This document shows positions 3,070 to 53,379 of a DNA stretch of 64,000 nt, one piece after another. Under the pieces are notes generated by a model. It was not told where the DNA came from, ran no database searches, and saw nothing but the letters and a program-made list of their open reading frames with translations. Every line of letters begins with the position of its first letter. Within the stretch, counting starts at the first letter, position 1. The position numbers and the translations under genes are program-made. Source of the DNA: Camelus ferus (lineage: Eukaryota); assembly GCF_009834535.1 (NCBI RefSeq), contig NC_045696.1, positions 43,836,001 through 43,900,000 on the forward strand. Direction: 5' to 3'.

Positions 3070-6000
3070 TAAATAATGCAAAAAGATACTGATGACTTTC
3101 CTTAAAATAAGAACAGATACCCATAAGGAGAAATACTAGAATGAATGAATGACTCTCAAAGAGACTGATAATTGAGATAATTTTCTTCAGAGATTAAAAA
3201 AGAAGATATAAAGAAAACTCAGGGAAATAAAAAGGCATTATAAGAAAACTCAAATTTCATAAGCAATATGGCCATGCTAAAGTTAAGAAAATTCTTAGTA
3301 ACAGCATGTAAGATTAAAAATTTTGCTCATACTGGAGAGAAGGAAGTGAAAATGAAAATTATGAAAGAGATAATAAATACAAAAGCTATCCCATCTATAG
3401 TAGTAATTACTCAGACAGCAGAGCGTTGTCAATAATATTTTAAAAGTTTATAACTCAAAAGTGTAAAAATAACTCATCCTTTTGGAAATGTTAAAAAATT
3501 ATTTTTTGTAAAATAAAACATTATTTAAAGTAGTACTCCATCTCACCCTTAGACTAAATTATAAACTCAAGAATGAAATAGTGTGACCAAAAAATAATAC
3601 CTTCACTAAACAGTGAAATGGCATAAATCAAGAAAAATCTAAAAGAAGTTATACATAAAAAGATAAATTTAATTTAATTCCTAAAAACAGTATACAGTAA
3701 AAATGCTGTGAAATGATGACCCAAAGAACTTACATGAACAAAAACTAATTGAGCAGTCTAATGATTAACTAAAATCAAATTAACCTAAAGTCGTTCCTAT
3801 GCAGGGAGAAATTAGAATACAATAATTAAAGAAATATAAGTAAAAGCAGAGTTTTCAAATACAGAGAGAGTGAATTAAGAGCAGAAGGTATACTTCTCAA
3901 ATGTATCCAATAGTAAAGAAAGCAAACTGATGACCACGCAGAAGAAAATAGAAAACCAAGCAGAATAAAATAGAAAATAAAGCAACAGCAAAATTACATA
4001 AACATGAAAATCATAAACATAAAGGCATTAGTACATTATTAACATACACATAAATACGTAAAATTTTATCACTATTAATCTTTTTCAGATTGTATAGTTT
4101 TATATTTGCATAGTACTAAAAATTCTGGAGCAAAGTAAGTGCTCAATACTTAATAGAGATGATGATGACAATGGTGATTGTTCTATGATGCTTTTAAAAA
4201 GTACACGTAGCACGGGGAAATATATACAAGATCTTGTAGTAGCTCACAGTGAAAAAGAATATGAAAAAGAATATATGTATATTCGTGTATGACTGAAAAA
4301 TTGTGCTGTGCACTAGAAATTGACACAACATTGTAAACTGACTATAACTCAATTAAAAAATAAAATTAAATAAAAAATTAAAAGAACACCTAATATATAT
4401 ACGCTAATATGTATCATATATGAAAAATAAAATGGAAACAATTATAAACTAAGGCAAAACACAGATGTGTAATGAATAAGAGAGCATGATGTTTTACATT
4501 AATTGATGCTTCAGTTTTGAGGATTTTTTTTTCTGAGTTTCTAATTTCTGTTTGGCATGTCTACTATTCAGAGAAAAGACTAATGGAAAACAGGTGGATA
4601 GAAAAGTCAGTTATTTAATCTGTCTTTCAAAAGCCAAAGCCCTTAGTGTACCAGAAAGGTTTTTAGGACATAAGCAATAAATTATTAAAAAAAAAATTCT
4701 AATGAGCCAGAGCTTCTCTAACTCAAGAATATGTAGAGGTTTCTTATTCTGGAGAGGAGAAACTGGGGTCCCTGAGGTATAGAACATACTAATGAGAGAA
4801 GTGGTAGAACTCTCATGATTTTCTGGGATTTAAGAGTGAGGAACATCTCTGCAGCACTTTCTGGGCTGGACTGGTAGCTGTATCAACATTCAATGGAAGA
4901 AACAGTTCTCTAATGTAAAAGGCCCTCAAGTTCACTGAATTTTCTAACTCTCAGTGCCGTGTAACGACTGATGATTTCAGTATGCCCAATATGCCTTAAG
5001 AACCAAAATGCCTTCTAGATCTATAGAAATTGCTACAGGGAACCAAGATGATTCAGTAGCAATATGCAGTGGTACAGTGACACAAACTCAAATGGTCAGT
5101 GGCTTTCTAAGTGATGTCAATGTAGAAAAACACCTAGCAAGAATGAAAAATCCAGTGTTTCTCACTCTATATCTTAATAAAGTCTTGACATTATATAAGT
5201 TATCTTGGAGAAGTGTTGAAGGCACCCATATTGATGGAGCCCAATGCTGATTTGGATTAAGTTTTGATATCTGGGAAAGATGAGGACTCAGAATAGAAAT
5301 TGAGTTGAGTTTCCAAAAATTCAAAAGCAGAAAGTTCTCATTCTGTATATTTGAATCTCTGAAATGAAATGTTGTATCAACAGTAATTATATAAAGATAT
5401 ATGAATATTTGTATGCTTAATCATGTTATACCAAATTAATAAATGTGAATTATTAAATGTATCAAAGATATAATTATTTACCCATAAAACCCAAGGCAAT
5501 CAGCAAAAAAATGAATAAAATTGATGAACTTATAAATAAAAAATTTAAACACTTTCTAATTTACCAATAACAAGATAAAAAAATATGAACATTTAAAGTT
5601 GCCTCAGGAAAACAGTTTTGAAGTACTTAGAAATAATTTTAATGAGAATATCATATGATTTAAAGAATATTTGAATAAACAAAAAGATAGAATATATGTC
5701 ATAAGTATAAAGACATAATTACTTCACAGATTAAAGTATAAATATTACTGTAAAAGTAAAAAGCCAAAGGGAATAAATTAAGAAAGTCATAAACTTAATA
5801 AAGTACTTTATAAGGTTTGTCAAATACAAAATAAAAACTGTAAAATCAGTATAATTCATATGTAGAAAAGTAACCAGGTAGAAGTTATAATTTTTAAAAA
5901 TCCAATTTAATAATAGAATAAAGCAAGATGTCCAGAAAACAAGAGTAATAATTTTGATTTCAGAGAGAAAGAATTATGAAAACGATGATGATAAATTAGA

Positions 6001-10649: not shown

Positions 10650-13478
10650 TTTTTTAACATTTTTTATTGATTTATAATCATTTTACAATGTTGTGTCAAA
10701 TTCCAGTGTAGAGCACAATTTTTCAGTTATACATGAACATATATATATTCATTGTCACATTTTTTTCTCTGTGAGCTACCATAAGATCTTGTGTATATTT
10801 CCCTGTGCTATACAGTATAATCTTGTTTATCTATTCTACAATTTTGAAATTCCATCTATCCCTTCCCACCCTCCACCCCCTTGGCAACCGCAAGTTTGTA
10901 TTCTATGTTTATGAGTCTATTTCTGTTTTGTATTTATGCTTTGTTTGTTTTTTTTGTTTTGTTTTGTTTTGCTTTTTAGATTCCACAAATGAGCAATCTC
11001 ATATGGTATTTTTCTTTCTCTTTCCGGCTTACTTCACTTAGAATGACATTCTTGAGGAACATCCATGTTGCTGCAAATGGCATTATGTTGTCGGTTTTTA
11101 TGGCTGAATAGTATTCCATTGTATAAATATACCACCTCTTCTTTATCCAGTCATCCGTTGATGGACATTTAGACTGTTTCCATGTCTTGGCTATTGTAAA
11201 TAGTGCTGCTATGAACATTGGGGTGCAGGTGTCATTTTGAAGTAGGGTTCCTTCTGGATATATGCCCAGGAGCGGGATTCCTGGGTCACATGGTAAGTCT
11301 ATTCCTAGTCTTTTGAGGAATCTCCATACCGTTTTCCACAGTGGCTGCACCAAACTGCATTCCCACTAGCAGTGTAGGAGAGTTCCCTTTTCTCTACAGC
11401 CTCTCCAGCATTTGTCATTTGTGGATTTTTGAATGATGGCCATTCTGACTGGCATGAGGTGATACCTCATTGTAGTTTTGATCTGCATTTCTCTGATAAT
11501 TAGTGATACTGAGCATTTTTTCATGTGCCTATTGATCATTTGTATGTCTTCCTTGGATAATTGCTTGTTTAGGTCTTTTGCCCATTTTTGGATTGGGTTG
11601 TTTGTTTCTTTCTTATTAAGTCATATGAGCTGCTTATATATTCTGGAGAACAGGCCTTTGTCGGTTTCATTTGCAAAAATTGTCTCCCATTCCATAGGTT
11701 GTCCTTTTGTTTTACTTATGGTTTCTTTTGCTGTGCAGAAGCTTGTAAGTTTCATTAGGGCCCATTAGTTTATTCTTGCTTTTGTTTCTATTGCTTGAGT
11801 AGACTGTTCTAGGAGAACATTTTTGAGATGTATGTCAGATAATGTTTTGCTTATACTTTCTTCTAGGAGGTTTATTGTATCTTGTCTTATGTTTAAGTCT
11901 TTGATCCATTTTGAGTTGATTTTTGTGTATGGTGTAAGGGAGTGTTCTAGCTTCATTGCTTTACATGCTGCTGTCCAGTTTTCCCAACACCATTTGCTGA
12001 TGAGACTGTCTTTATTCCATTGTATGTTCTTGCCTCCTTTGTCGAAGATTAGTTGACCAAAGGTTTGTGGGTTCATTTCTGGGCTCTCTATTCTGTTCCT
12101 TTGGTCCATATGTCTGTTTTTGTACCAATACCATGCTGTTTTGATTACTGTAGCTCTATAGAATTGTCTGAAGTCTGGGAGAGTTATTCCTCCAGCCTCT
12201 TTCTCTTCAGTAATGCTTTGGCAATTCTAGGTCTTTGATGGTTCCAAATAAGTTTTATTATGATTTGTTCTAGTTCTGTGAAATATGTCCTGAGTAATTT
12301 GATAGGGATTGCATTAAATCTGTAGATTGCCTTGGGCAGTGTGACCATTTTAACGATATTGATTCTTCCAATCCAAGAGCATGGGATAGCTTTCCATTTT
12401 TTAAAGTCTTCTTTAATTTCCTTCATCAGTGGTTTATAGTTTTCTGTGTATAATTCTTTCACCTCCTTGGTTAGATGTATTCCTAGGTATTTTATTACTT
12501 TGGGTGCTATTTTAAAGGGGATTGTTTCTTTACTTTCTTCTTCTGTTGATTCATCGTTAGTGTAAAGAAATGCAACTGATTTTTGAACGTTAATCTTGTA
12601 ACCTGCTACCTTGCTGAATTCTTCGATCAGCTCTAGTAATTTTTGTGTGGACCTTTTAGGGTTTTCTATATATAGTAACATGTCATCAACATATAGTGAC
12701 ACTTTTACCTCTTCTTTTCGAATTTGGATCCCTTTTATTTCTCTCTCTTGCCTGATTGCTGTGGCTAGGACTTCCAAGACTATGTTGAATAGGAGTGTGA
12801 CAGTGGGCATCCTTGTCTTGTCCCAGATTTCAGAGGGAAGCTTTTGAGTTTTTCACCATTGAGTACTATGCTGGCTATAGGTTTGTCATATATAGCTTTT
12901 CTTATGTTGAGATATGTTCCGTCTATATCCACTTTGGGGGGAGTTTTTATCATAAATGGGTATTGAATTTTATCAAATGCTTTTTCTGCATCTATTGAGA
13001 TGATCGTGTGGTTTTTGTCCTTTTTCTTGTTGATGTGATGTATTACATTGATTGATTTGCGTATGTTGAACCACCCTTGTGTCCCTGGGATGAACCCCTA
13101 CTTGGTCATGATGTATAATGTTTTTTATGTGCTGTTGGATTCTATTTGCTAATATTTTGGTGAGGACTTTTACATCTATGTTCATCAGTGATATTGGCCT
13201 ATAATTCTCTTTTTTGGTAGTGTCTTTGCCTGGTTTTGGTATCAGGATGATGGTAGCTTCATAGAATGAGTTTGGGAGTATTCCCTCCTTTTCAATCGTC
13301 TGGAAGAGTTTAAGAAGGACTAGTATGAGTTCTTCTTTATGTGCTTGGTAGAATTCCCTGGTGAAGCCATCTGGTCCTGGACTTTTATTTGTAGGAATGT
13401 TTTTTATTGCTAATTCAATTTCATTTTTAATGTTTGTTCAAGTGGTCAGTTTCTTCTTTATTCAGTCTTGGTGGACTG
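10650..13478 (-). mobile_element. Young 5'-truncated LINE-1 (3' part of ORF2 with RT domain, plus 3' UTR); frameshifted, inactive
   Basis: ORF2 peptides [75 protein letters not shown], ending LICGI* at ~10976. Perfect 13 bp TSD CCTCCATACAATA at 10637-10649 and 13479-13491. Confidence 0.97.
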
Positions 13479-14169
13479 CCTCCATACAATACTATAATGA
13501 AGATACAATTTGAAAAATTTAAAAAGAGCCCAATGCAATATAAATTATTGGGAATAAAACGGGAATTTTTTTTTCTATTATCAGTTCCATATCCTACTTC
13601 TAGAGAATGGAAAATAACTATCCACTGAATTAAAACCTTGAATTGGTATCTTCTGCATAAACATATTATGCTTAATACCTTCCTTGAGTAAAGGAGAGAT
13701 GATGGATTTAACATTTTCTTGAGATATGTTTAACATTTTGGGGTGTCTCTAGACTAGAAAGGAGGATGTTTTTAGTTCTAAGATAGACAAGATGAAGTTT
13801 AAAAATATATACTATAAGCTTATATGTGGATGCAAAGACAGTTTTAAAAGGCAGGTGTACTCACCAGTTAGTAATCAAGAAATTCTTGCTGCTTGGCTGA
13901 AGGCACATTCCTAGCCCACTAGGACTTTACAGTTTGTTTGGAGAATCAAGGCTAATATATGTGAAAGGGTGGACATAATACTGAAGTACTTCTTTGTAGT
14001 GCTAGCAACTAGTGCAACAGGAGTCAAACGTATACACTTACACTCTTTTCATTCTTGTAAGTGAAGAATGGCACTTGGTCTTAAATGATGACTGGGATTA
14101 GAGCTTGTCAAATAGTGGAGAGAACCACAAATTTCTAGAAAGAACAATAAAGAAGGTATAGAGACATGC

Positions 14170-17762: not shown

Positions 17763-19400
17763 AACTTCCTGGGTTGAACTGTGCTACCTCTGAGTCTGCT
17801 TGCAGCTGAAAGATCCTGGGACATCTGATAAGACCCACAAAAGGTAGGAATTCTTACCATGTTAGTCTTCCAGATCTCTGCCTTCAGTGTCTTTTGGAAG
17901 CAAGAATGGTAAGAGAACCCTTTTTCGCTTTTCTAAATTTATATTATCAGGAGAAAATACTTCTAGAGCTAATTTCTTGGGCTTATTAGCAACTCTGGCA
18001 AATTTGGTAGAGTACTCTTGGCTTTATTGATCCATTCTATTCCAGAGATGGTCATAGTTTTTCTTTGTCTCTGTTGTGCTATTTGTCTTGTTCTATGTCC
18101 TGAGAGCTTGGCTTTATGATCAGTGAGAATATTCTATCTGCTGTCCACAATCCAGAAAGTGCACTTACCAGTGTGCATTTGACCATCAGTTGAATAGGCT
18201 AGGATTCCAAGCAACTCTCGCCAGCTTGTCAGAAGCACAGTTAGCATAACCTGGGCTTGTGACTGGTATCTCTTTGTCCAGCCATGCCAGCTATCAGGGA
18301 AGTTTGTCATAGGGTTTTCAGCCCATAAGGTGCCTTTTTCGTCTCAAACTTTTTTGCTTTGTTAATGACATCATTCTTACTGCCTGTGCAATGAACTTCT
18401 TTGCTCTCATAGGCTGTTTTGGAGACTGAAACTTTTTCATCTTATGAGAGCTATATCTTTTTGCACTCTCTTTTGGAGATGCCTCTTGCATCCATGATTA
18501 AGCTATGAAAGGCTTATTGGTTTCAGTCACTATTAAGATCCTACTTAGCAATGGCCAGACAATGGATCCTTTGTATTAGAGAAACTTCTATATTGGTAAA
18601 GTTTTAGACAGCTCTCATTATAAACAGCTGTCTTATTGGTACCTATGGGAAAGAAGAAATTAAAAGGTGGATACAAAGAAATATAACAGCTAGCTTTAAG
18701 AACTCCCTTAAAAATAGAAACCTGTTTGGGAAACCTTATCAAATTTGTGGTCTCAGCTTCCTTTCATGGTTCTTAGAGATGCTAGTAAAAAACATTAGGT
18801 TAAATTAACAAGAGAATGGGAACAGGCTGAGAATCAAGGGACTCTTCCCAACAGGTGAAAATTTTTGAAGGATTATTAAGAAATAAGGTAAATAAAGCAA
18901 ATATTGAAAGAGGTGGAATAAGAGAAATTGGAAAAGAAGAGTTGCAGGACTTCTCCCAGAGTGATTTAAATCTTTAGATGATTAGTAAGAAATGGAATTA
19001 GGAAGTAGTTTGGCCTGGAGGGTCACCCGGTTTCTATGCAGCATCGGGAAACAATGAGGGCCCCTGAGGGTATGCCTCCTATAGTCCAGTGCACCTGGCC
19101 TAGGACCCACTTACTCCCAGAAGGCACACTTCTGGGCCAGACAGAGGACACCACCAGCTCTGGGCATTTAAAATTAAAAAAGAAAAGAAAAGAAATGAAT
19201 AAAACAAACATGATGGAGTTAAAACAAAGGTTCTGAATATAGCACTACCTATATATAGCTAGCTGGGCCAAAGTGTCCCCCTGCTAGTCATTCTCCAACA
19301 TTAAAGGGCCCCAAACCAGTCTGCTCTATTTATCCCATTTAGAGAATATTTTTTTTAAATCAAGAAGGTAAAAATTATGTGCAGTAAAATTCATATTTTA

Positions 19401-19836
19401 TGATATGATAAGAAAAATTTAAACATAAAAAATTTTCTGTGCCTTTTGGCCTCCTCTTTCCCCACTTCTGTGCATTGTGTATCTGCATTTACCCATGGAC
19501 CAAACCTCCCCTATTGGCAGAAATACCTGCTCAACCATAACCAGCAACATTCTCCAGTGTCAACAAGACAACTCCTTAAAAGATCACATTCCTTCTTGAT
19601 CTTGCAAGGGATCACAATGATGCTTAGATATGAATTGTGTAAACTGTCAATAAAAATATGTCATTTAATATACAGCCCACTGTCTCAAAACTTACATAAC
19701 TGTGCCTTGACTACTAACAAACAAAACAGTTCTCAGAGCATTCTGAGATGCTCTTCCAGGGTTATGATCCTCAAATTTGGCTCAAATAAAGTTTTTCATT
19801 TCTTTCTTAGGTAGACTGATTAATTTTTCATCAACA
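19401..19836 (+). mobile_element. Solo ERV1 LTR nested in the provirus
   Basis: TG...CA termini, AATAAA at ~19785, approximate 4 bp TSD ttta/atta. Confidence 0.75.
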
Positions 19837-21485
19837 ATTACAATGAGAAACCTGACTAGTAATTGCTTGGGGCAACAATTAGGGCAGTTAATCGAGTTAA
19901 AAATTGACAGAAGGGCCTGGGCCCCTTGATTTAACCCCTCTGGGGACCCAAGGTCTTTTGCATAAGAATGGGTAAAATGACCCTCCGAAGGGAGTGTGGA
20001 GAGGAGTAGTTTCCAGGACTTCTTGATGTGAGAACCTGAGCTTGGTACCAAAATCCATCGGTGAGGTACTGATGGACTAGATTGAAAAAAAAATGTAAAA
20101 GTATAAGGATTGATAGGATGTTTGAGCAGGTATTATGTGAAGAGGTTATGTCAGTGTTGCTCGAGTGTTTAATAGGAATGGATGTTATGTCTGGGAGTGC
20201 TTCCTCACCCAGAATTGTAAGACCAAGACATGTTGATGGGGTCCTAGTGAAGGCTATGGTTTGAGATATGAGTTGATGGAATGAGCTGAAAGTTTGTAGG
20301 AAAGTTGGTATATTTGAATGGGCTCTATGAAAAACTGTTTTTGTCTTGCAAATCTCTACAAAACCAAAAATGTAGCTCTAGAAGCAAAATAAAAGCTTAC
20401 CTATCTTTACCATCCAAAACTTTCCCTACTATTCTCAAAATGCGTGTAGATATTGGGATGTGAGAACTGTACCTTTGTGATGTAGGTTGTCTACCTCCAT
20501 CTTCTCTAGGACCTAAGAGACCTTCTTTGAAACGCAAAATTTAAGATGTTTCTCATCAGAGGAAGAAAGTGGGGTGGAATATTCAGAAATTGGACAAATG
20601 AGAAACCTTAAAAATCTTACCTACAAATATTAGTAAAAACTCGTTAGCCATCTGGAGAGATAATCTTAACTTTTCCAACTGCCAGAACTAAGCTTGGATC
20701 CAATGTTATTTTATAAACTAGTGAGTTTTGTACTACTGTACCCATCTTATGACTAAAAATTTTTTGGACAAAAGCTATAAGATCTCTATGTCTGTCTGTA
20801 TGTTTGTGAGTCTGCATATGTATGGTGTGGATATGTAATTTTTTTCTTAACTTCTAGGTGTTATCATTAAAATTAATTTGTAAAAGAGCTCTATTTAATT
20901 GACTTAAACAAGTACTTATATAAAATTTCTCAAAGACAAAATAAACTAACCCTTTTTTTTTCAAGTTAGCAAAATATACACTATCTGTTAAATAAAAAAT
21001 TGTTTAAGTGTGTTGGTTTAATTAAACTAGTTATGCTTTCAGAATTATTGGTGGCAGATATTAATGCAGATATGCAGCTTTTATTCCACATGGGTTATTA
21101 ATCAAATAAGTTCATGTTATCTCTGTTATAAAATTTGTCAGCAAATAAATAAATAAATAAAAGTAAAAAACCTGGAGATGATGGTTGACTTTGTCTAATG
21201 TCTCAAGAAGTTTTCATAGGTATTCTAAACATAATTGTTAAAAAAAAAAAAAAGTAAATGGATGTAAATGAGATACAAGTTTCTAGGTAAACATGTTAAG
21301 TAGCCCCCCCAAATCTTTTTGCAAACCTGAAACCTTGCAGTTTTGATAAGTTTAATTAAATGATAGAAACTGAATGTATAGATCATTTCCAAATAAGATA
21401 AAATGCTGAAACATTAATTGCTGAATATAGGCTTATTTACTTTTGGTTTCTGATTACAGAGGAACTAAGGAAAAATTTGGGTCTA

Positions 21486-22004
21486 TTTTTTTTTTTAATA
21501 GACTTTATTCTTTCAGAGAAGTTTCAGGTTCACAACAGAATTGAGCAGAAAATACAGAGTTCCCACATAGCCCTCCCCACCCACACATATATACTCCCCT
21601 ACCCTCAACATCCCTCATCAGCATGGGATATTTGGTACAATCGATGAACCAACATGGGCCCATTATTATCAACAAAAGTCCGTAGTTTACATTAGGGTTC
21701 ACTCTTGATGTTGTACATTCTGTGATTTCAACAAATGCATAACAACATGTAGCCACCACTATAGTATCATACAGAATAATTTCATTGCCCTAAAAGTCCC
21801 TTGTGCTCCATCTATTCATTCCTCCCTCTCTCCCTCTCCCCAAACCCCTGGAAACCACAATCTTTTTATTGTTTCTGTAGCTGTGCCTTTTCCAGAATGT
21901 CATTGGGTTGGGATAATACTGTTTGTAGCCTTTTCAGACTTGCTTCTTTCATTTAGTAATATGTCTTTTAAGTTTCTTCCATGTCTTTCATGGCTTGATA
22001 GATC
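21486..22004 (-). mobile_element. L1MC1-like 3' UTR with poly(A), inserted in the ERV interior
   Basis: Poly-T at 21486-21496, then the L1MC1/2-type 3' end (caggttcacaacagaattgagcagaaaatacagagttccc...). Homologous to 42050-42575 on the other strand. Confidence 0.85.
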
Positions 22005-22965
22005 TTTTTTCTTCTTTTTCTTTTTTTTTTTCATTGCACATATACCTTTTAATTTACATATATGTACTGTTCATTGTTTCTAAGAACACTTTTAGCTTTT
22101 TAAACTTACATAGTTATCAAAGGAATAAAGCCAACCACAAAATAAGAATTAACTCAAAAAGATACACCCTGCTATTAACAGGGTCTACTAATAGACATAT
22201 CTTTTGCTTTACTGAAAGATTGTACTATGAAGTAGTGTATGTCTCTAAAAATTATAAAATGCATTTATAAATTTGCCAAGCCACAAAATACTGATGTAAG
22301 GCCTGTTCGATTGTTTACTCCTTAGTTAAGGTTTCTAAGGATTAAGAATTCTAACTGATATATGTAATTAAAGCTACTAGAAATAATAAGGAAAACATCT
22401 TTGTCTGCAAGGAAAGTAAGATGTATTTTGGGGTAAGAAAGAAATGAGGAATGAGGATGCACTTTTCTTGAGGAAAGTGAAAGTGATTTCATCTTAAAAT
22501 AAAGCTGATTATTTCAAGAATGGAATGGAATGAATGAATGAACGAATAAATAAACGAATACACTAATTTATTTCAAGATGAAGCATAAAAAGGGACAAAC
22601 TAAAATTGGTGTAGAAAGCTGTAGAATGTTTTTTGAAAAAGAATCTTGAGAAAAAAATTTGTGTGTGAACAAGCTGTATTTGCCTTTAACATCTTCTATT
22701 GTCACTTTGGTCATACAGATAGCTACATATTGTTTCACAGTGATTTACAATACTATTTGTTTTAAAACCTTTTTATATTTATCACAAACTTCCTAAAAAT
22801 TAAATTCTAAGTTAAGTCTTTCTGACCTGAAAATAACTTTGAGAATTTTCCAGTGGATCCCTGGAAAAACCCTCAAATTATTTGTTCTCTCTCCTTATAG
22901 AAGATATATATTAAATTAATTAGGTTTGTTTTGTATGTTAAATTACATGGGAAGCATTGTCAAAT

Positions 22966-23076
22966 GAAAAAGAATATGAAAATGAATATATATGTTCATG
23001 TATTATGCTATACACCAGATTGACACAAAATTATAAACTGACTATACTTCAATAAAAATATATATATACAAAAAAG
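22966..23076 (+). mobile_element. Short camelid-type L1 3'-end fragment in the ERV interior
   Basis: gaaaaagaatatgaaaatgaatata...actgactatacttcaataaaaa, as in the other L1 tails of this window. Confidence 0.8.
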
Positions 23077-25054
23077 TGATGCTAAGCTTTCTTTATATTT
23101 ATGTGGATACATGTTATTAATGTGTGTTTCATAAATTGTATGGAAGTATTAAAACTCTAAGTCCTTCTGTGTTAAAACTTGGAATTCTATTTTATTTTCA
23201 AATGCCATGTTACTGAAATAACCAAATTTCCTTGCCAATAGCATTATAATAAACTCTTACCAAACCTTTAACCATGACCTTTTTAAGTCTTTTTTCATTT
23301 ATAAACAGATATGTCTTACTGTGATGCTTTTGCAAATGTATTTCATCATCAGAGAGATTCATGGAAAGAACTCTGAAAATTACTCTAGAATATAGTTTTC
23401 TAAGTTAACTTTCATATCATTCCACTTAACTGGCTAAGAATTTATAGAACTCTAATGAAGAAACTGATTACTTCATAAAATTTCTAACAAAAGATCAAGA
23501 TCAACAAGAATTAATTACAAGGAGCTGAATGAACTGATGAGGATGATTATTTTATAACTTTTGTTTTATTGCTATTTCTCTATTTTGCTTTTTCAGATTT
23601 TAGGAAATATTTTTCTCTTTTCTCTTAACCTACTAACAATTTGGTAAGATATACCATTGTGAACAAAGAGTAAACATGTACTTTTTATTCCTATCTGATT
23701 CCTCTAGAACTCGAAAACTTCCAGTAAGTATTCTTACATTTTCATGGCAATATATTTATTTGCTTAAGTTCAGCAAAAAATCTGTTATCCTTATAACAGG
23801 GAAAAATTAGAAATATTAGTTATATCACCAAGATATTTGACTGGAATATCATATTTGGAAAGAGCCATGCATAGACTCAGATATGACCAGACAGCTTTAA
23901 GAAACTAAGGTTGGCTTCTTGGAGCCAATAAAATCCCTTGGAAGAAACAGCCTTGCATCTTGCTTATAGGGTTCTCAGAGGCCTTACCAGGTGAGTAAGG
24001 AGGGTCACTTCCTGGTAGGTACAGGAACTTCAATATATTTTGGGAACCTCAAGAAAAAAGGAGTTTACCCAAATAAGTATTACTGGTGAATCTGATGGCA
24101 AGTTCTTCGGCCTGGCTTCCTGGCCATAAGGGACATTTGAATGTTCAGTCGAGATTCTTGATGAAAAGTTCCAGCACAGCAGGTTTAAAAGAGGCTAATT
24201 TATGGTCAATCTCTATTTTTTGCTGTACTCATGTAAATAATTGGAACAAGTTCAATGAAACTAAATTCATTTTGCAAACAAATTAGTCTTCAGTTGGTTA
24301 TCTTTAGTAGAAATGAAGGTAGTTGTAGACAGAAAAATTGTTTCAGTAGCACACTTTTGTGGATATTAGATTTCAGTGCTGTTTTTTGTCTTTTAAGGTT
24401 TTGTTTTCTACCTGTAAAGTGTACTTCATCCTGAATTCTCCTACTTTCCTCCAGTATTTGGCTACAACTCTCTAAACTACTGTTTTTATTTTTTTCTCCC
24501 ACGCTTTTGACTTGGATTCATTAAGAACTAAAACTGCCCTGTTTCCAAAGCTTTTATGCAAGCTAAAATTTTACAACTTTATATAAACTTCAGAAAAATC
24601 ACCCCATAGCTCATTTATAAACAATCCTTATGACTGTTACTGTGTAGGCCACTTAGAATGATTACTAGGTACATTCAAACTGCAAACCAGGAATATCTGT
24701 CAGTCTGCCACCATCTGCCCTCACTCCATCTGATGATGCTTCAAGCCAGACATCTAAAAAGTCTTCTCTACTGGCTGCCCTCAGAACTCAGAAACTGGGA
24801 TTATGTTTTGCTTTAATCACTAAACATTGCTCTTATTTTGTTTCTGATGTGGTGTGGGTGTGTGTGTATGTTCTAACCTCTAAATGATATTACTAAAATT
24901 AATTTGTAAAAGTACTACCAGAACAGGATGAGAAGAAATTATCTGATGTAGACAGCTGACCCAAAAATCCAGATTTGGCCTGTATGCCAATTACTTTGAT
25001 AATTGCTCACTTTGCTCAGGAACTAAATGTATTTCACAATGTTAAAGTAAATTC

Positions 25055-25128
25055 AATTGCTAGGTTTGTGATCAGTTACCTGTATCTAGTACTTCTGGAT
25101 TACCTTGGTGGATTTCTCCACTCCAAGG
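25055..25128 (+). pseudogene. ERV env SU N-terminal relic
   Basis: Translates NC*VCDQLPVSSTSGLPWWISPLQG (CWVC-type CxxC motif with W changed to a stop). Confidence 0.8.
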
Positions 25129-25983
25129 ATCCTGTTGGTTGACCCTTAGGAAATTTATTCTAGAAGAAAGAAATTATAGTCCTTTTCAGGCCACTAGTGA
25201 TTTTATTTGGTGGGATGCCCTCACCTGGACAATTAATAATACCTGCTCTGACCCTGCCCATAAATGTTAATTTTTTTCTAAAGTTATTCAAGCTCAATCA
25301 GAGCAGCAAGCAAAATTTCAGCCAAAGAATATAATTTCCCACAATTATGGGATGAATTTATGTGGTTAACATCAGACTGTGGTCATTTAAGTTTAAAGGA
25401 TCCCTTATGCTGGGAAAAATTAAATCATACTAAGAATAACCAGACTAATACTAGGAAATTGGGCTGGGTACCTTACAGATAATGCCAATATATAATTTTT
25501 ATTAAAGACAAGGATTGGTACAGAATTGGTACACAGCTGCACCTAATGGAAGTTCTTAACTTAAATTCATACTTATGACCTTACTATACTGCTAATTATA
25601 TTATTTGCATATTGTGTTTTACAAAATTATTGTTTCTTGCATTACCGAATGTGTGACTGAGCTTCTGATAAAATGATGATGTGGCAACTTGAAGCAGTTA
25701 ACCAGATATATAGTTATATAGGAAATTTGTAATTATAATAGTGTAATTCTAGATATGAGAAGAAGCAATAAGAGGGAATATTTCCCTGGATCATAACAGA
25801 TGAGTAAAATAGGTGGTCCAGAGAATTTTGGCTACTATTAGTAAGTCTAGCAATAGGACATTGAGTGGCCTTAACAACGAAATCCTCACCTGACCTAGGA
25901 ATGAGCATTCCTAGCACCATAGAAAAAAATGGTTATAAAATGCCTCCCAAGCTATTGTGGAATCTATCATCATGAGGGAGCCC

Positions 25984-26240
25984 TGACAACTAAAACTGGT
26001 GCTTGCCATCTGCTTCTACAAGGATTAAGTCACAAGCCACTGCAATTGCTGTCCTTCAGCACACCCTAAAAGGAGTTCAGGGTGGAGGTCAGGAATGAGG
26101 TAGTCAGTTCTCTAAGATAAACTGGCAGAACAGACCTTCAGATAGTTAGATGTTTTCAGGAGAAGATTTTATGAGCCCAAATTCTTGAATTTCCTCATAT
26201 CTAGAAACACACTAAAATCATTAGTGGTGACATCTTCTTT
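25984..26240 (+). mobile_element. Truncated MER41-like ERV1 LTR preceded by its own internal 3' sequence (~25130-25983), splitting the env relic
   Basis: Purine tract gagggagccc, then tgacaactaaaactggtgcttgccat. Shares motifs (cagatagttagatg, cactaaaatc) with the LTR at 26922. Confidence 0.6.
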
Positions 26241-26481
26241 GGCCATTAAGGAGAGAGATGCATTTGAAAGCCAAAATGGAATAATTGTAGTTCAGACATC
26301 CAAGGTAAAACTAGGCAGCCATTGTAGACATAATTCCAGGCAAGTTTCTGTATTGCTGTGAACTTGAGTTTTCTGAGCTGTGTCAGACTTGGAACACCAC
26401 CAGCCATTTTCAAAGCAGTGTCTGCTGGCAACTGGTAGCTGCAACCTTATGGTTTCAAGGTCTCCTCTTATAATTAAGTTT

Positions 26482-26570
26482 TTAGACAATAAGTTGCTTT
26501 AGATCAGATATTAACAGAAAAGAGAGACTTATGTGTAGTGGTCAATAGTTCCTATTATGTATATCTAAAT
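26482..26570 (+). pseudogene. ERV env TM relic (immunosuppressive domain and decayed CX6CC)
   Basis: With one frameshift it reads LDN(K)VALDQILTEKRDLCVVVNSSYYVYLN, comparable to the class I consensus LDNRIALDYLLAEQGGVCAVANTSCCTYIN. Confidence 0.8.
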
Positions 26571-26921
26571 GTCACATCAGAAGTTAAAATTAGACACCTG
26601 GCTACCTGGCTACAAGCCTCCCCAAAGTGCCGGGTCCAGATTGGGTTTCAGGTTTATTATCCTGACTCCCTCAAAGAATGAGATCTATTTTGTCAAGGTT
26701 TGGGTTGTTACTCCTACATCTAACTGGGTCTGTTGAACGAAAATGGCATACCAAGTGATTGATTCTTAATCATACTAGGCTCAGATCAAGGACTTGAAAC
26801 TGGAATCTTTTCAACTTGATGTCCATTTCCCAAACTGTGGCAGGACTATGCCCTGTTTTAGCAGGAAGTAGCCAGAGTGGTCATCACCCCATTCCCTGAA
26901 AGATTTAGGAAAGGATCAAAA

Positions 26922-27403
26922 TGTGAATGAAAAATACTACAAACTATATCAGTAAACAAATAATGCTGAAGCCATCAGGTCATCAGCCGCTGCCCCACCA
27001 CCACCACCACCTGTGAGGACAAGCTTGCAGCCCAGCCTCCGCAGCCACTCACAATGGTGCCCTCTGAGGGGACTCAGAATAAGAAAGGACAAGATACTGG
27101 CCCTAGATGGCTAGATGCTTGTTAAAGGAATGAATTCAGTGAGCCATTTGCTTCCTCCCATGCATAGTAAAGCACTAAATTCTGTAACTTGCAATGCCTG
27201 GTTTTGTTTAGATAACAAGTAATCTTTTATTGTTCCAACTACCTGGTCTTTGTAGTAAAGCTCCTATATATCCTAGCTCCTCCCCTACCTCTTCGGAGCA
27301 GTCCCTCAGAGCAATCTGAGTGGCTGTCATCCCGGCTCGAGTCCTCCCGCCAGATAAAACATAACTCTTTAACTTTTAGGCTGTGCATTTATTTCAGCCG
27401 ACA
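26922..27403 (+). mobile_element. Solo ERV1 LTR (MER41-like), copy 1 of an inverted pair
   Basis: TGTGAATGA...CCGACA termini, 4 bp TSD AAAA, TATA box (ctcctatatatcc). Confidence 0.9.
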
Positions 27404-27499
27404 AAAATAAAGGAGGGATTGAAACAGAGTCCCTCTAAAACTGGCTTTCTCTGCTGAGTTTATGACCAACCCCCCTCTATCCAAAATTTTATTCCTTTT

Positions 27500-27950
27500 C
27501 TTGTTCAACAGCTGCTCTTCTCAACATTGAGGAGTATCAAAAGAAAAGGGGGGAAATGATACCAAGCAGGACCCTGTGGTGTCCTCCCTGGCACAAATCT
27601 TTCCATGTTCCCATTTTTTTGTTCGTAGGAAATAGGCTTCCTTTAGCCTCCTTGACCTTCCATGAGCTCCAGAGGGGAGATTCAAACAGCTGTTAATCTG
27701 GAAAGGGAGGGAATGCAGAGGTGGGGGAGGAACAGTCAAGAAACAATAGTGCAGCCTTAAGGCACAGTCCTGGTTCCTCCTTAAGGAATATACATAACAA
27801 TGTCTCTAAGTTATTTTGAAGATACTAATGTGCCCTCAACCCCTGCCCATTGTTGTGACTGAGCAGAATCTTCAGAGATTGGGGGGGGGGGGGTGGCTCT
27901 TGGTCCACCAGATTGCTGGCATTCTGACTAAAAGCAACTTTCCTTTTTGT
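27500..27950 (+). mobile_element. PPT plus partial ERV1 LTR of another family, nested in the LTR starting at 27420
   Basis: aaagaaaaggggggaaa followed by tgataccaagcaggaccctgtgg; this start is homologous to the reverse complement of the end of the LTR at 30773-32253. Confidence 0.65.
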
Positions 27951-28945
27951 TACCAAGGATGTTGCCTCCAGGCAACATGCCCCTGCCCCTCCCTTGACTA
28001 TAAACCAATTATTCTTATCTAAGTCTCAGGAGGTAATTGCAACCAGAAGAAATAAGAGATTAGAACAATGGAGCCCAAGATAGTGGAGGATTTGATTTCC
28101 AGTGAAACTTGAGCCTCATTATACACTCATAAAGTATTAGCATGCTAAATGACACACCCGTCAGCACCTTGACAGTTGACAGTTTCCATGACAACAATGA
28201 GAAAAGCCCATACAAGGTCTGAGAAGCCCATACGAGGACCCACTGGCTCTAGCACACTGGAATGAGGACATGATGTGAGAGCTTTTCTTCCCTTCTCCCT
28301 GCTCAAGCTCTTTCCTTCCTTTTCCTCTTTTGAGAAATAAAGCAGCTTTCACTCTGTTCCTCTGACTCAGCTATGAATTCTTTCTAGCTGGCAGGCAAGA
28401 ACCCACCTTTTGTGAGATCCTTGTTCTAAGGGGGCATCTTCCATTCACTAACATTTCCATAGAAATGCCTCTTATCAAATACCTGATTGCTTGTACATTA
28501 TGGACCTAACTTTGGCAGCCCACCTGCTTCACCACCATCTGAAAGGAGTTTCACTGAACTGACCTATTATCAGGACTAAGAGACTGGCTCAATGAGATAT
28601 AAAGCAACCTATCAACTCAACTTCTGGACTGTGAAACTTCTTGGAGAAGTTTTAAAGATGGCACTGCAGTGAAGCAAAATTTGCCACCCTTAAAGTGTAA
28701 TCTCTTAGTCATGGAGATTATTTCAATCTGAAAATAATCAAAGCTTGAAAGATTCAGGAAAAATCTGCCTTAAGGAATTTAGATAGCATGAAACTGTTCC
28801 AGGTAGGGAGCTATCACTATAGTATAATATGAACTAGATATGGTCACAAGGAGGAACTTAGCAAAGTCTCTTTGTTAAAATTCCTCACTATGTCCCATTG
28901 TTTCTTTATGGCCCTTCAAACATTTGTTTACCAGACATTTTCTCA

Positions 28946-29800
28946 CAGGAAGGAAAATCATTCTTCTACTCTTCTAGGTTCTTCTGAGTGGTCTAAGAAT
29001 TAGACAAATTAACAGGAGAAAAACAAGCAAAAGTTTAATCACATGGATATCTTCTATGTACATGGCAGAGACTCAGGAAAACTTAGTATTTCTCCAAAAT
29101 GGCTAAAGCCCTTACCTTAAATACCATTTTTAAAATTTTGGAAATAATAGTTTGGAACTTGAAAGGGGATTAAGATAATTCACATGGAGATGGAAAGGCA
29201 AATGTTTGGTAAACAAGGGTTTGTTGTCCCAAGGAGAGACAATAGGACACAGGACTTTGGACTCCAGGCCCTGCTGAGTTCCCCTACCACACCTGGCCCA
29301 TACTCTTTGTCAGTATCTCTGTTGGTAGTGCTCTTCCTGGACCAGGCTCTATATCTAAATTCTTTAGATAGCTGACAGAGAGGTAAAAAGAAAGTCTTCC
29401 TAAGTCTTTGGTTTCTTGAAAATAATCAGCTTAAAATAATCCTCATGCCAAAGAGACACATTTTGGGGTCGTTGCTGAGTCCAAACTCATTCTGCTCGCC
29501 ACATGATAGGGCAATAAATTGGGAGACAAGGTGTTAGGGAAGGAATAGTGACTTTATTCAGAAAGCTAGCAGACCAAGAGGATGGCAGACTAATGTCTTG
29601 GAGAACCATTCTGCTCTAATCAGAATACAGGCTCCTTTTATGCAAAAAATAAGGGAGGTTGTGTGGTTGATTGCTGTAATGCTACAGGCATTCTTTGTTC
29701 TTGCAGCCATCCCCATGGGCTAGGTCATGGTGTCCCTGTAAACTTCCAACAAAACAAAGGATATTCTCTACTTCAGGGTGACAAATTTTGCTTTCCTACA
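28946..29800 (-). mobile_element. MER34-like solo LTR, antisense, abutting the truncated proviral 3' LTR
   Basis: Reverse complement begins tgtaggaaagcaaaatttgtcaccc...aaaatgtgtctctttggcatgagg, homologous to the LTR at 34927. Split by the LTR at 29470-29775. Confidence 0.85.
29470..29775 (-). mobile_element. Short solo ERV1 LTR nested in the MER34-like LTR
   Basis: Flanked by 4 bp TSD GGGT (29466-69, 29776-79). TTTATT at ~29553 gives the orientation. Confidence 0.85.
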
Positions 29801-30772
29801 ATTTCCTTGATTAAACTAATTGGTTCAGATATTTTTTATATAATCCTTTTTATATACATAACACAATTTTAATGTACTTGATTACATAGGGGCTAGTCTT
29901 TGGCAATCCATTCTGAACTATGATAAAATTTTATGCCAGGCAAGTGATACATTTTATAGTTAGCAATTATTTGCTAAACATAATGGATCATTGGTATCTC
30001 TCACCAAGTAATACATATATATTTTTAATTATTGTCATTAGCATGGCCAGTGAAGTTTTCTTACCCAAAGTGAAAAGTAGAAATCTTCATTCTATTTTAT
30101 TCTCTTATGGGTTTGAGAAAAAGATGATTAATATAGTGTTTAATTTCCAAATTATTTCTTGCTTAGTTACTTACATATTTCCTGACATTCCTTGTTAAAT
30201 ATGAAAAACATAAAGTAGGAATACATTTGTATTGACTGCAATATATCTTACAGCTTGGGTGGTACAAAAAATTTTTCGCCAATACTCAACAATTACTTAT
30301 ACTTGCCTCTTATCTCAATATGGAATATTTTAAAATCATAAATATTTCACAGTACCATTTCAGACATTTATCTATTTAATGTTTTGAATTGAATGCAGAT
30401 AGATTTTTAATGTATTTTTCACAAGTGACTTGAATATTCTTTTTTAAATTAGTAGCTATATGTGGTTAAAACATTTAACTTATTGTAAATAAAAGGGCAA
30501 AAATTTTGTTTTGACATATATCTGTAATTTGGTCTTCAATAAAAAGTAATCTGTGAAAATTCAATAGGGCAGTTTTTATCACTTGGGGAGGCAAATGAGT
30601 AGAAAAATCATAGTTTAATGTCAGACAAATATGGATATTTCCTTTAATTTTGCTTATGGAAACCTGAGAGATCCCAGAACATGTTACTTAATATTTCTAA
30701 TTCCTGAATCCTCACCTGTAGAATAGAAGTGATGGCACCTAGTCCACAGATTGTTTGACTGTTAAATGATGT

Positions 30773-32253
30773 TGTTACTGAACTCTGATTTGGCTGTCAC
30801 TGCTTAAAAGTCAGTAGTTCAAGAGGTGTCTTGACCGAAATAAATGCACAACCTAAAAGTTGAGAGTTGTTTTACTTGGCAGGAGGACTCGAGCCGGGAT
30901 GACAGCCACTCAGATTGCTCTGAGGGACTGCTCCGAAGAGGTAGGGGAGGAGCTAGGATATATAGGAGCTTTACTACAAAGACCAGGTAGTTGGAACAAT
31001 AAAAGATTACTTGTTATCTAAACAAAACCAGGCATTGCAAGTTACAGAATTTAGTGCTTTACTATGCATGGGAGGAAGCAAATGGCTCACTGAATTCATT
31101 CCTTTAACAAGCATCTAGCCATCTAGGGCCAGTATCTTGTCCTTTCTTATTCTGAGTCCCCTCAGAGGGCACCATTGTGAGTGGCTGCGGAGGCTGGGCT
31201 GCAGGCTTGTCTTCACTGGGGGGTAGTGGCTGATGACTTGATGGCTTCAGCATTATTTGTTTACTGATATGATTTGCAGTATTTGTCATTCACAGGTGTC
31301 ATTAGAAAGCAAAGGTGCTTTAATCAGTAAAGCTGATAATCTGGGGAAATGGTAGACTCATGTCCAGAGATTATCTCCAAAGATTCTACTCAGCCATGCC
31401 ATGAGAGTTTTTAAAGGGAAAAATGGGGGAGAGGAGAATCTGAGTGAATCATTGAGGTAAGAGTTGTGTTCTGCATCATTCTCCATTGTGTGCAGACTGG
31501 CTGACCCTCTTTTCAGATGTTATCTTGCCCCTGTGATCTGCCTGCAGGATTGCTAAGAGGGTTGTCGAGGGTAGAGACCAAATCATTCTTTAGCTGCTTA
31601 ATTCTTTATTCTTCTTTTTTATCTAGGAGAAGAATCAACAGGTTAAAGAAGGCATGGTGTGCATTTAAGAGAGTGTAAGTCAGGAGTTAATTTAAATTGC
31701 TTAATGATCTCATTCCAATAATTAGCATCTTTTAAAGTTAGAGGGAAAACAGAAATGGGTGAACAGGAAAGGGGCAAAAGAGCTGCTTTCAATTCCCCAC
31801 TATCAAACATCATTCCATTTCTAAGGGATTAGGGGCAAAAATCCATCACCTGTACTCTCTTCATACTGACATAGGGTACCATATTCTCAGAGTGGAAGAT
31901 GTTCACATGGGTCTGTAGCATCTCTCTGATGACAATTTTAGTTCCCCAGTTACATATACAGGCAGAGTAAGCTATAATTATTTTGATGTCCACTAAGATA
32001 TAGATTATTATGAGCAATCCCATTCTTTTGAGGCCAGTTCTTGAAATTGTGCTAGCCATAGATTCAGTACTGCTCATGTTACAGTCTGGTCATGATATAG
32101 TTAGCTTTTTCCTCCAGGAGCCATTATAGTATCTGTCGAATAACTCAGGAATGTCTATCAGACACTGAGTCTGTGACTCTATTGTCCTAATCATTAACTG
32201 CTCAGTTTTATACTGGGGACAGGGCTGGGGCCACAGGGTTCTGCTTGGTTCCA
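30773..32253 (-). mobile_element. Long solo ERV1 LTR (MER31/MER67-like) inserted in a MIR, itself split by the LTR at 30829-31294
   Basis: TG...CA termini with 4 bp TSD ATGT (30769-72, 32254-57). MIR-like sequence on both flanks. Confidence 0.8.
30829..31294 (-). mobile_element. Solo ERV1 LTR (MER41-like), copy 2 of the inverted pair
   Basis: Reverse complement of 26922-27403, with its own 4 bp TSD GGTG (30825-28, 31295-98). Confidence 0.9.
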
Positions 32254-34926: not shown

Positions 34927-35495
34927 TACAGTGGAACAAAATTTGCCACCCCAAAATGTGTCTCTTTGGCATGGGGATTATTTCCAGCTGAAAACAATCG
35001 AGGCCCAAAAGACTCAGGAAGGGCATTTGAATTTCCCCTTTAACTGCCTCAAAGAAATTAGATAAAGGACCTATTCCAGGATAGTTATGTATCACCAGAG
35101 ATAACTTTGGTATGATATAAACTAAGTGTGGTAGTCAGGGAAGAACCTAGTAAAGTCTGTTTGTTAAAACTCCTCTCTGTGCCCCATTGTTTCTCTAAGG
35201 TACAGCAAACATTTGTTTACCAAACATTTGCATTTTCATCTCCATGTGAATTGTCTACTTCCCCTTTGAAGTCCTAAACCACTATGCCAAACATCATCTT
35301 GTGTCTTTAGCTGAAGATGATATTTAAGGTGAGGGCTTCAGTCATTTTTGTTACTCAGTTCTCCTGGGTCTCTCCCATGTATTTATATTATTAAAGTTTT
35401 GTTCAGTCTTCTTTTTTAATCTGTTTCACATCAGTTTAATTCTTAGACCAGCCAGAAGAACCTAGAAGGGTAGAGAAAATTTTTTCCTTTCTACA
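34927..35495 (+). mobile_element. MER34-like solo LTR
   Basis: aaaatttgccaccccaaaatgtgtctctttggcat start motif, ends cctttctaca, TSD agac/aggc. Confidence 0.88.
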
Positions 35496-52438: not shown

Positions 52439-52492
52439 TACTTAAAATATCTTAGTCACTCTCCGTACTTAAAATATCTTAGTCACTCTCCG
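52439..52492. repeat. Perfect 27 bp tandem duplication
   Basis: TACTTAAAATATCTTAGTCACTCTCCG x2. Confidence 0.97.
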
Positions 52493-53379
52493 TGGACATG
52501 ATCTATCTATCTGGAAAATTCCTCCTAAATGCTGCTCATTGTCTCAAGGCATCTATAACTGGTCAGCATTATCCTCTTAAAGGTGAGGATGCTACTGAGC
52601 CATCTTCAGTATGATAGGGAAGTGAATTTTCACTGACATTCCCATAAAGTTTCCCCTTGTCTTACAGTACTATGGCAAACACTTATGAGATTGTTGACTG
52701 GGGTTAATAGTTCAATGTGTATCCAGAGTATAAATAACTCACAAAGATCAGATCTGTATTCTTTCACCAGGATAGCAGTTCTGCCTAGGATCTCAGCAGT
52801 CACCTGATTGAGACAGAATCAGTATCTCAGTGGCAGAATAAATCAAATTACTTAAATCAGCAAAATAAACAGTGTCAAGGTTGGAAAAAATGAGATTTGC
52901 AAATATCTTTTGAACATCTAGTGAGGTAAAATACCAAAGACAAACTTGGATATAAAACCAATGTAAAACTGGTTTCACTATCCTACACAAGAATTTATTT
53001 AATCATGCTGCATAAGAAGAAAAATTGCTTGCAGTTCTACTATGCACAACTGTCATTACTATTGATTAGAATAACTAGATTTAGATGAGTTGCTGAAGGG
53101 ATAAACTTAAAATAATCAAGTTTTAATAGCATTTCTATTTCTAGAAGGAACCTGTAAAAGATATAATCAAGAATATCACTTTTGAGTAGCTAAGAATTCA
53201 TGAATCCCTGCAAAAAATTTCATTTCCTAACAGAAAAGAAAGTTTAAAAAGAGTGAGTATAATGAAGAAGATATGTGTCCAATATAATAAAACTCTATAT
53301 GTGTGTGTATAACAACACATCATTCTTGCCATCCACCTATAGGTCGTGGAAAAGCTAAAATTATTATGTGTAGTAGGAT

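Follow-up and report, generated by a model that had tools for sequence, protein, structure and literature searches.

A 322-nt identical core within two diverged, inverted solo LTRs of Camelus ferus: a probable gene conversion tract

Two solo long terminal repeats (LTRs) of one family lie close together in inverted orientation in the 64-kb window of Camelus ferus DNA analysed here (the term refers to the whole stretch, 64,000 nucleotides). They are indistinguishable over a long internal segment and clearly diverged at both ends, which raises the question of how such a segment could have come to be identical in two old insertions.

Two separately inserted LTRs

The LTRs, designated copies A and B (Table 1), are arranged tail to tail, 3.4 kb apart, and a TATA-like hexamer was found in both. 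Each is a single LTR flanked on both sides by its own 4-base target-site duplication, the length produced by ERV1-type elements. Both copies are presumed to be ERV1-like, and the pieces of the spacer are likewise presumed to be LTR-like. The duplications AAAA (copy A) and GGTG (copy B), both on the plus strand, were found as reported in a preliminary description of this DNA, that of copy B being valid only if this copy has lost its usual terminal dinucleotide. Since each copy keeps its own matching duplication, the two represent separate insertions. A spacer in net inverted orientation would place CACC and TTTT as inner duplications; instead, inner and outer duplications match at each copy, which rules out a net inversion and supports the earlier proposal of independent insertions around a spacer without net inversion. 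A single provirus with two LTRs was also ruled out, since the copies point in opposite directions and each carries a separate target duplication.

No further copies of the LTR family were detected in the 64-kb window by BLAST, where the best other match spanned 37 columns (E 0.03), or by nhmmer. Short LTR motifs gave 0 matches in metagenome and viral contigs, which hold little mammalian DNA and are uninformative on copy number. A literature search covering few subscription papers returned no work that dealt with the locus or with camelid pairs of inverted solo LTRs.

Table 1. Coordinates of the LTR pair and its parts (positions within the 64-kb window)
Feature	Position	Strand	Remarks
Copy A, solo LTR	26922-27403	+	482 nt; TG start, CA end
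Copy A left target-site duplication, AAAA	26918-26921	+
Copy A right target-site duplication, AAAA	27404-27407	+
Copy A 5′ arm	26922-27025	+	89% identity with copy B; 13-nt short-repeat indel at approx. 26997-27009
Copy A core	27026-27347	+	322 nt, equal to copy B core; 4 CpGs; TATA-like hexamer at 27265
Copy A 3′ arm	27348-27403	+	83% identity with copy B; two small indels; without canonical poly(A) hexamer
Spacer	27404-30828	.	3425 nt; older, presumably LTR-like pieces predominate (matches in self-comparison); not net inverted
Copy B inner target-site duplication	30825-30828	-	GGTG on + strand
Copy B, solo LTR	30829-31294	-	466 nt; TG start, terminal dinucleotide altered
Copy B core	30882-31203	-	322 nt, identical to copy A core
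Copy B outer target-site duplication	31295-31298	-	GGTG on + strand

Identical core and diverged arms

In the assembled sequence, alignment and a repeat finder showed that the 322 nt of 27026-27347 match the reverse complement of 30882-31203 with 0 differences, and a base-level check agreed with the perfect complementarity claimed previously, including the four CpGs. The 5′ arms differ by 10 substitutions at 91 aligned sites, against about nine in the preliminary description, and by one 13-nt indel. The further differences noted in the 3′ portions were present and amounted to 9 substitutions at 53 aligned sites plus two small indels. With both arms pooled, 19 of the 144 aligned sites differ (approx. 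13%), accompanied by 3 indels. At this rate about 42 differences would be expected among the 322 sites of the core, where 0 were seen. For an even distribution of the 22 differences, an identical run of at least 322 nt would arise with P ≤ 6e-11; a Fisher test of arms versus core gave P = 9e-11, and the contrast persisted without CpG sites (P = 1e-16). Among the 16 repeat pairs of at least 80 columns in the 64-kb window, which are mostly older (67-86%) and thus a weak control, an exact run of more than 26 nt occurred in the copy A/B pair alone. The divergence step is abrupt. Differences start at the first base outside the core on both sides, and the copy A/B alignment displayed no identity gradient towards the core on either side. 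At each end of the core, an indel occurs 13-16 nt away, a coincidence that is suggestive only (P about 0.07), and we do not claim indels as barriers at the core ends. An exact match of 32 nt within the 5′ arm (26946-26977) was set aside as a candidate second tract; by rough estimate, such a run arises by chance with a probability of about 0.2 at 11-13% divergence over 91 sites.

Perfect identity with sharp edges is also the expected product of an assembly error, in which a gap filler or polisher overwrote one copy with the sequence of its partner, and the copies may lie near enough for confusion of mate-pair reads. Collapse or cross-polishing is not normal, however, for copies that are 13% apart. 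The 64-kb window contains 0 N and is part of a piece exceeding 57 Mb, and none of the other 15 repeat pairs mentioned above shows a comparable run. Moreover, even if cores that were about 99% alike had merely been collapsed, conversion would still be required to explain them. We consider an artefact improbable. Sampling of the surrounding 6 kb returned 0.78-0.83 of 608 words in 15 of the 24 runs listed (7 studies), a measure to which one core and two look the same; the surrounding 6 kb is thus real DNA in many samples. The same 608-word sampling gave 0.27, 0.25 and 0.12 in three runs recorded as RNA and 0.10 in two runs guessed to be RNA, values that were not counted as evidence.

The arms carry several signs of age. 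Transitions account for 16 of the 19 substitutions. None of the four arm CpGs is common to both copies: at each site one copy reads CG and its counterpart CA or TG, and loss went both ways (three in copy B, one in copy A). In the core, all four CpGs are shared (4/4 versus 0/4; Fisher P = 0.03), and the CpG observed/expected ratio is 0.23. Neither AATAAA nor ATTAAA is present in copy A or copy B. An older related LTR-like piece (19725-19826) harbors a poly(A) hexamer at the matching place, from which the two copies deviate at different positions. The deamination pattern of the arm CpGs, the non-canonical hexamers and the altered terminus together point to a long residence of both insertions, and we infer from CpG loss, hexamers and terminus that the arm differences reflect decay after insertion, although part of the divergence could predate it.

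These signs bear on the idea that both insertions are young and derive from two subfamilies with a core common through recombination between viral lineages, so that the locus itself would have seen no copying. Retroviral recombination yields mosaic subfamilies. For two camelid genomes, bursts of LTR elements are reported at 0.5-2.5 and 1.5-4 My ago (PMC8605555). Young insertions are, however, difficult to reconcile with arm CpGs that all differ in deamination pattern, with poly(A) hexamers that are non-canonical in two different ways, with an altered terminus, with the low CpG ratio of the core and with the lack of a second copy carrying the same core in 64 kb. This origin appears very improbable.

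Gene conversion and other routes to identity

The drop in divergence from 13% to 0%, the CpG pattern and the target duplications support a conversion-like tract, and the core is probably the product of recent non-allelic gene conversion between the neighbouring solo LTRs. To this extent the preliminary description was supported; the routes it had named, fold-back pairing and inversion toggling, look alike in a single sequence. In the proposed scenario, two LTRs from the same family arrived in separate insertions, in tail-to-tail orientation and with 3.4 kb between them, and would have decayed independently to a difference of about 13%. A recent break or stalled fork in one copy may then have been repaired with the other, nearby copy as template, so that about 300-322 nt were copied one way without exchange of the flanks. 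Synthesis-dependent strand annealing or an equivalent template switch would be a suitable route, and the converted tract would have spread to the sequenced chromosome. On the best reading, the tract would be younger than about 1-2 My and the arms roughly ten times older or more.

Published values give a mean gene conversion tract of 250 bp (interval 63-1000; 10.1101/135152), LTR conversion tracts that reach 450 bp (PMC4921805) and raised conversion rates for copies less than 10 kb apart (PMC6598467, PMC8230782). Tract size and distance of the copy A/B pair are consistent with these values and speak for conversion. Conversely, models outlined in 10.1101/135152 expect conversion to wane past a few percent divergence. 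A 322-nt tract at 13% divergence is unusual, which gives some weight to an artefact or to concerted evolution that has acted on the core over a long period.

In the latter case, repeated recombination would flip the 3.4-kb spacer, and linked conversion would keep the middle identical while the ends escaped. The perfect inverted identity over 322 nt is a plausible substrate for such toggling, and the core ends next to indels might reflect a fixed barrier, which the P value above makes suggestive only. A human precedent is HsInv0209, in which a 782-bp stretch at 99.9% identity within repeats averaging 94% is the likely breakpoint (PMC3961182). On the other hand, the spacer is currently without net inversion (one haplotype), identity shows no gradient towards the core, and a reciprocal double inversion alone would presumably swap segments without equalising them. 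Inversion toggling at this pair is speculation, and as the cause of the identity it seems hardly more than a slim chance.

Identity might also have been preserved by selection for a long double-stranded RNA, formed by read-through over both copies. The computed pairing potential of copies A and B on the same strand extends over 456 bases (-876 kcal/mol), and the facing LTRs carry TATA-like boxes in their cores and lack a canonical poly(A) hexamer. Pairing of this kind is trivial for any inverted repeat, however, and RNA pairing tolerates G-U pairs and mismatches, so that identity at 322 of 322 positions is unnecessary. A transcript starting from the TATA box of copy A would hold the core for only some 53 nt, which makes 99 pairs together with the arm, and 0 Rfam matches were obtained in 26500-27900. 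Selection of this type is extremely unlikely, and a double-stranded RNA from the pair as ADAR or endo-siRNA substrate is speculation from this pairing potential.

These elements can be combined. One long conversion might have re-coupled the 13%-diverged LTRs, and the resulting perfect repeat might drive a polymorphic 3.4-kb flip-flop, continued homogenisation and double-stranded RNA from facing promoters without poly(A) signals. We regard this as unlikely; if true, the locus would be a natural test of old transposon pairs regaining recombination activity. The 13% divergence itself is well beyond the usual limit of conversion.

Significance and known systems

The process that we favor, conversion between nearby transposon copies, LTRs included, is already known from published work, and the locus represents a clean example. 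No known gene is touched by the pair, which has no apparent function. If the tract is real, it represents a neat case of ectopic conversion that can be dated and that joined old LTRs from separate insertions. It would imply that conversion is able to cross 13% divergence between close copies and that LTR-to-LTR identity may misdate insertions tenfold or more. It would also provide a new substrate on which a small inversion, invisible to short reads, could arise. Its value is that of a case to be included in genome-wide surveys, not of a discovery in itself.

A close known system is non-allelic conversion of human LTRs, with tracts of 3-86 bp (minimum) and 14-450 bp (maximum) and a mean of 99 (Trombetta et al. 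2016, PMC4921805). There, as proposed here, a paralogous LTR overwrites an LTR acceptor, the nearest paralogous variants bound the tract, and linked donors are favored. The human tracts were recognized as SNP clusters on the Y phylogeny with identified donors, in contrast to the 322 nt in adjacent inverted solo LTRs seen in one sequence. Alu elements less than 10 kb from each other are similarly homogenised (Aleshin and Zhi 2010, cited in PMC8230782 and PMC6598467), so that separate nearby insertions are too alike for their age. This is a statistical, genome-wide signal in primate SINEs, whereas the camel case is a pair of LTRs that share a single long perfect tract.

LTR-LTR conversion within proviruses (Kijima and Innan 2010, cited in PMC6598467), reported for about 1,800 elements per camelid genome (PMC8605555), likewise runs from LTR to LTR over a few kb and resets the molecular clock. 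Provirus LTRs, however, are direct, identical at insertion and share one common target duplication, while copies A and B are inverted with their own duplications. Recurrent inversions (Aguado et al. 2014, PMC3961182) also feature a near-perfect stretch within more diverged inverted repeats, but those repeats mostly measure kilobases and both orientations were genotyped, compared with 322 nt and one orientation only at the camel locus. Finally, template-switch homogenisation (PMC8604942, PMC3820800) resembles the proposed event in that one arm is copied and an imperfect inverted repeat becomes perfect; in those cases the arms are short and close together in yeast, whereas copies A and B share 322 nt in cores that lie 3.5 kb apart.

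Structure of the inverted LTR pair

The strongest repeat detected by the repeat finder in the whole window is formed by two LTRs of one family, copy A and copy B, which are inverted to each other and lie tail to tail on either side of a spacer. Base-by-base extension confirmed the preliminary description in that the middle parts of both copies (cores) are exact reverse complements over 322 nt including 4 CpGs. The ends on either side of the core are diverged. The 5′ arms carry the reported indel, which comprises 13 nt, and 10 substitutions at 91 aligned sites instead of the nine or so counted before, while the "several more" differences of the 3′ arms amount to 9 substitutions at 53 aligned sites and two small indels.

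Target duplications were present at both flanks of each element, AAAA for copy A and GGTG for copy B. After a net inversion of the spacer the inner positions would read CACC and TTTT, which is not the case. Copy A has TG...CA termini; copy B starts with TG, and its duplication fits only if the last dinucleotide is altered. A single provirus with two LTRs was rejected, as its LTRs would be direct repeats sharing one duplication. Copies A and B are therefore two solo LTRs, which were inserted separately, and the spacer has no net inversion, in agreement with the initial assessment of the flanks. Both the layout and the 4-base length of the duplications are suggestive of the ERV1 class.

Copy A seems to be inserted inside the 3′ end of an older endogenous retrovirus, to judge from a layout that we presume. 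A long non-coding stretch in two segments, with an LTR-like piece and purine tracts, resembles what we take to be the internal part of this element. Elsewhere, the window contains a GC-rich open frame of 197 codons, broken open frames whose translation presumably corresponds to L1 ORF2, and a perfect 27-nt tandem duplication in two copies.

Coordinates of the LTR pair and of other features of the window
Feature	Position	Strand	Length (nt)
Copy A	26922-27403	+	482
Core of copy A	27026-27347		322
TATA-like box of copy A	27265		
Spacer	27404-30828		3425
Copy B	30829-31294	-	466
Core of copy B	30882-31203		322
GC-rich open frame	2024-2617	-	
Inverted L1 3′ ends	4208-4359 / 10660-10810		
Broken open frames	10976-13729	-	
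Non-coding stretch	19400-26900 and 27404-27560		
LTR-like piece	near 19400-19835		
Older related piece	19725-19826		
Purine tracts	about 27404-27418 and 27540-27557		
Older inverted LTR-like pair	34948-35492, partner within spacer		
Tandem duplication	52439-52493		

Divergence and age of arms and core

The arms diverge by 13.2% (interval 8-20%). At this rate about 42 differences would be expected in the core, where 0 were observed; with CpG sites left out, the binomial probability of zero core differences is 1e-16. If the 22 differences were spread evenly, a 322-nt run would have P ≤ 6e-11. In a control set of 16 within-window repeat pairs aligned over 80 columns or more (9 inverted, 7 direct, LTR pair included), the longest exact runs of the other 15 measured 10-26 nt, although these pairs are a weak control, most being older (67-86% identity). 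Within the assembly this feature is genuine, and chance falls far short of explaining it.

Two other inverted pairs lack a long identical tract. The older LTR-like copies, 5.5 kb apart, are 68% identical over 562 columns with a longest exact run of 26 nt. The L1 3′ ends, 6.3 kb apart and 86% identical over 152 columns, show a divergence similar to that of the LTR arms, yet their longest exact run is 18 nt.

Transitions account for 16 of the 19 arm substitutions. Of the 4 CpG sites in the arms, 3 have been lost in copy B and 1 in copy A, each time with CA or TG facing an intact CG, so that none is shared, in contrast to 4 of 4 in the core (Fisher P = 0.03). AATAAA or ATTAAA occurs in neither copy; the older related piece has a poly(A) hexamer at the matching place, from which both copies depart differently. 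CpG loss, transition excess and hexamer changes point to decay of the arms within the host genome. At four of the substituted 5′ arm sites (26978-27017) copy A has G where copy B has A, two of them in GG context, a pattern as cytidine-deaminase editing would leave but too small to test.

Arm dates are upper bounds because of the fast mutation of CpG sites and because some of the differences may be older than the insertions; at a generic rate of 2e-9 they reach 36 My, and the corresponding limit for the core is 2.3 My. With the rate used in PMC8605555, 5e-9 per site per year (2.5e-8 per generation of 5 years), the upper bound for the arms is 14.5 My (8.6-23), and the core is younger than 0.93 My at 95%.

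Probable gene conversion and alternative explanations

Non-allelic gene conversion characteristically leaves the middle of two elements far younger than their ends and does not exchange their flanks, and the sequence pattern probably reflects a recent tract between these neighbouring LTRs. A break or stalled fork within one copy would lead to invasion of, or a switch to, the other, on the same chromatid by loop-back or on the sister. Some 300-322 nt would be synthesised off this template before a return without crossover, and the converted tract would then spread in the population. Differences begin at the first base beyond the core on both sides. Such sharp edges without a gradient would fit one recent tract or repeated tracts halted at the same barriers; each core end has an indel at a distance of 13-16 nt (P about 0.07). 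The pair is unusual in one respect, namely that so long a perfect tract is shared by copies differing by 13%. Published models (10.1101/135152) predict that conversion declines once divergence exceeds a few percent, which counts against the conversion reading.

That the identity arose during assembly is unlikely, as an assembler does not normally merge copies that differ by 13%, and the window is free of N and sits on a piece of > 57 Mb. Of 608 words sampled from 26000-32000, a fraction of 0.78-0.83 was present in 15 of 24 listed public runs (7 studies, one organism). The locus thus exists widely; both cores give equal words, so these counts have no bearing on core identity. Repeated inversion of the spacer is a quite unlikely source of the identical core. 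A pair of reciprocal inversions by itself would exchange segments without equalising them, and conversion would still be required. Recent insertion of both copies from a young mosaic family, with no copying at the locus, would agree with recent LTR bursts reported for two camelid genomes (PMC8605555), and we consider it very unlikely. Further family copies numbered 0 within the 64-kb window and 0 in three collection scans (two metagenome-contig, one viral-contig), which hold little mammalian DNA.

On one strand, copies A and B are predicted to pair over 456 bases (-876 kcal/mol), and a transcript starting near the TATA-like box of copy A would pair over 99 bases. Rfam gave no matches in 26500-27900. 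Any inverted repeat would show such predicted pairing. Selection of the core for dsRNA is extremely improbable.

Relation to known conversion systems

Among the papers listed by the literature searches, none was on this locus or on camelid inverted solo-LTR pairs. Reviews describe raised conversion between transposon copies < 10 kb apart (PMC6598467, PMC8230782), and the mean human conversion tract is given as 250 bp (10.1101/135152). For one inversion, the breakpoint coincides with a near-perfect stretch within inverted repeats that are otherwise diverged (PMC3961182), and template switching between inverted arms yields the same end product (PMC8604942, PMC3820800). Human LTR conversion is documented with a preference for linked donors and maximal tracts of 14-450 bp, a range that includes the 322-nt core (PMC4921805). 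Conversion between LTRs is already known as a process, and the pair of copies A and B is probably a further example.
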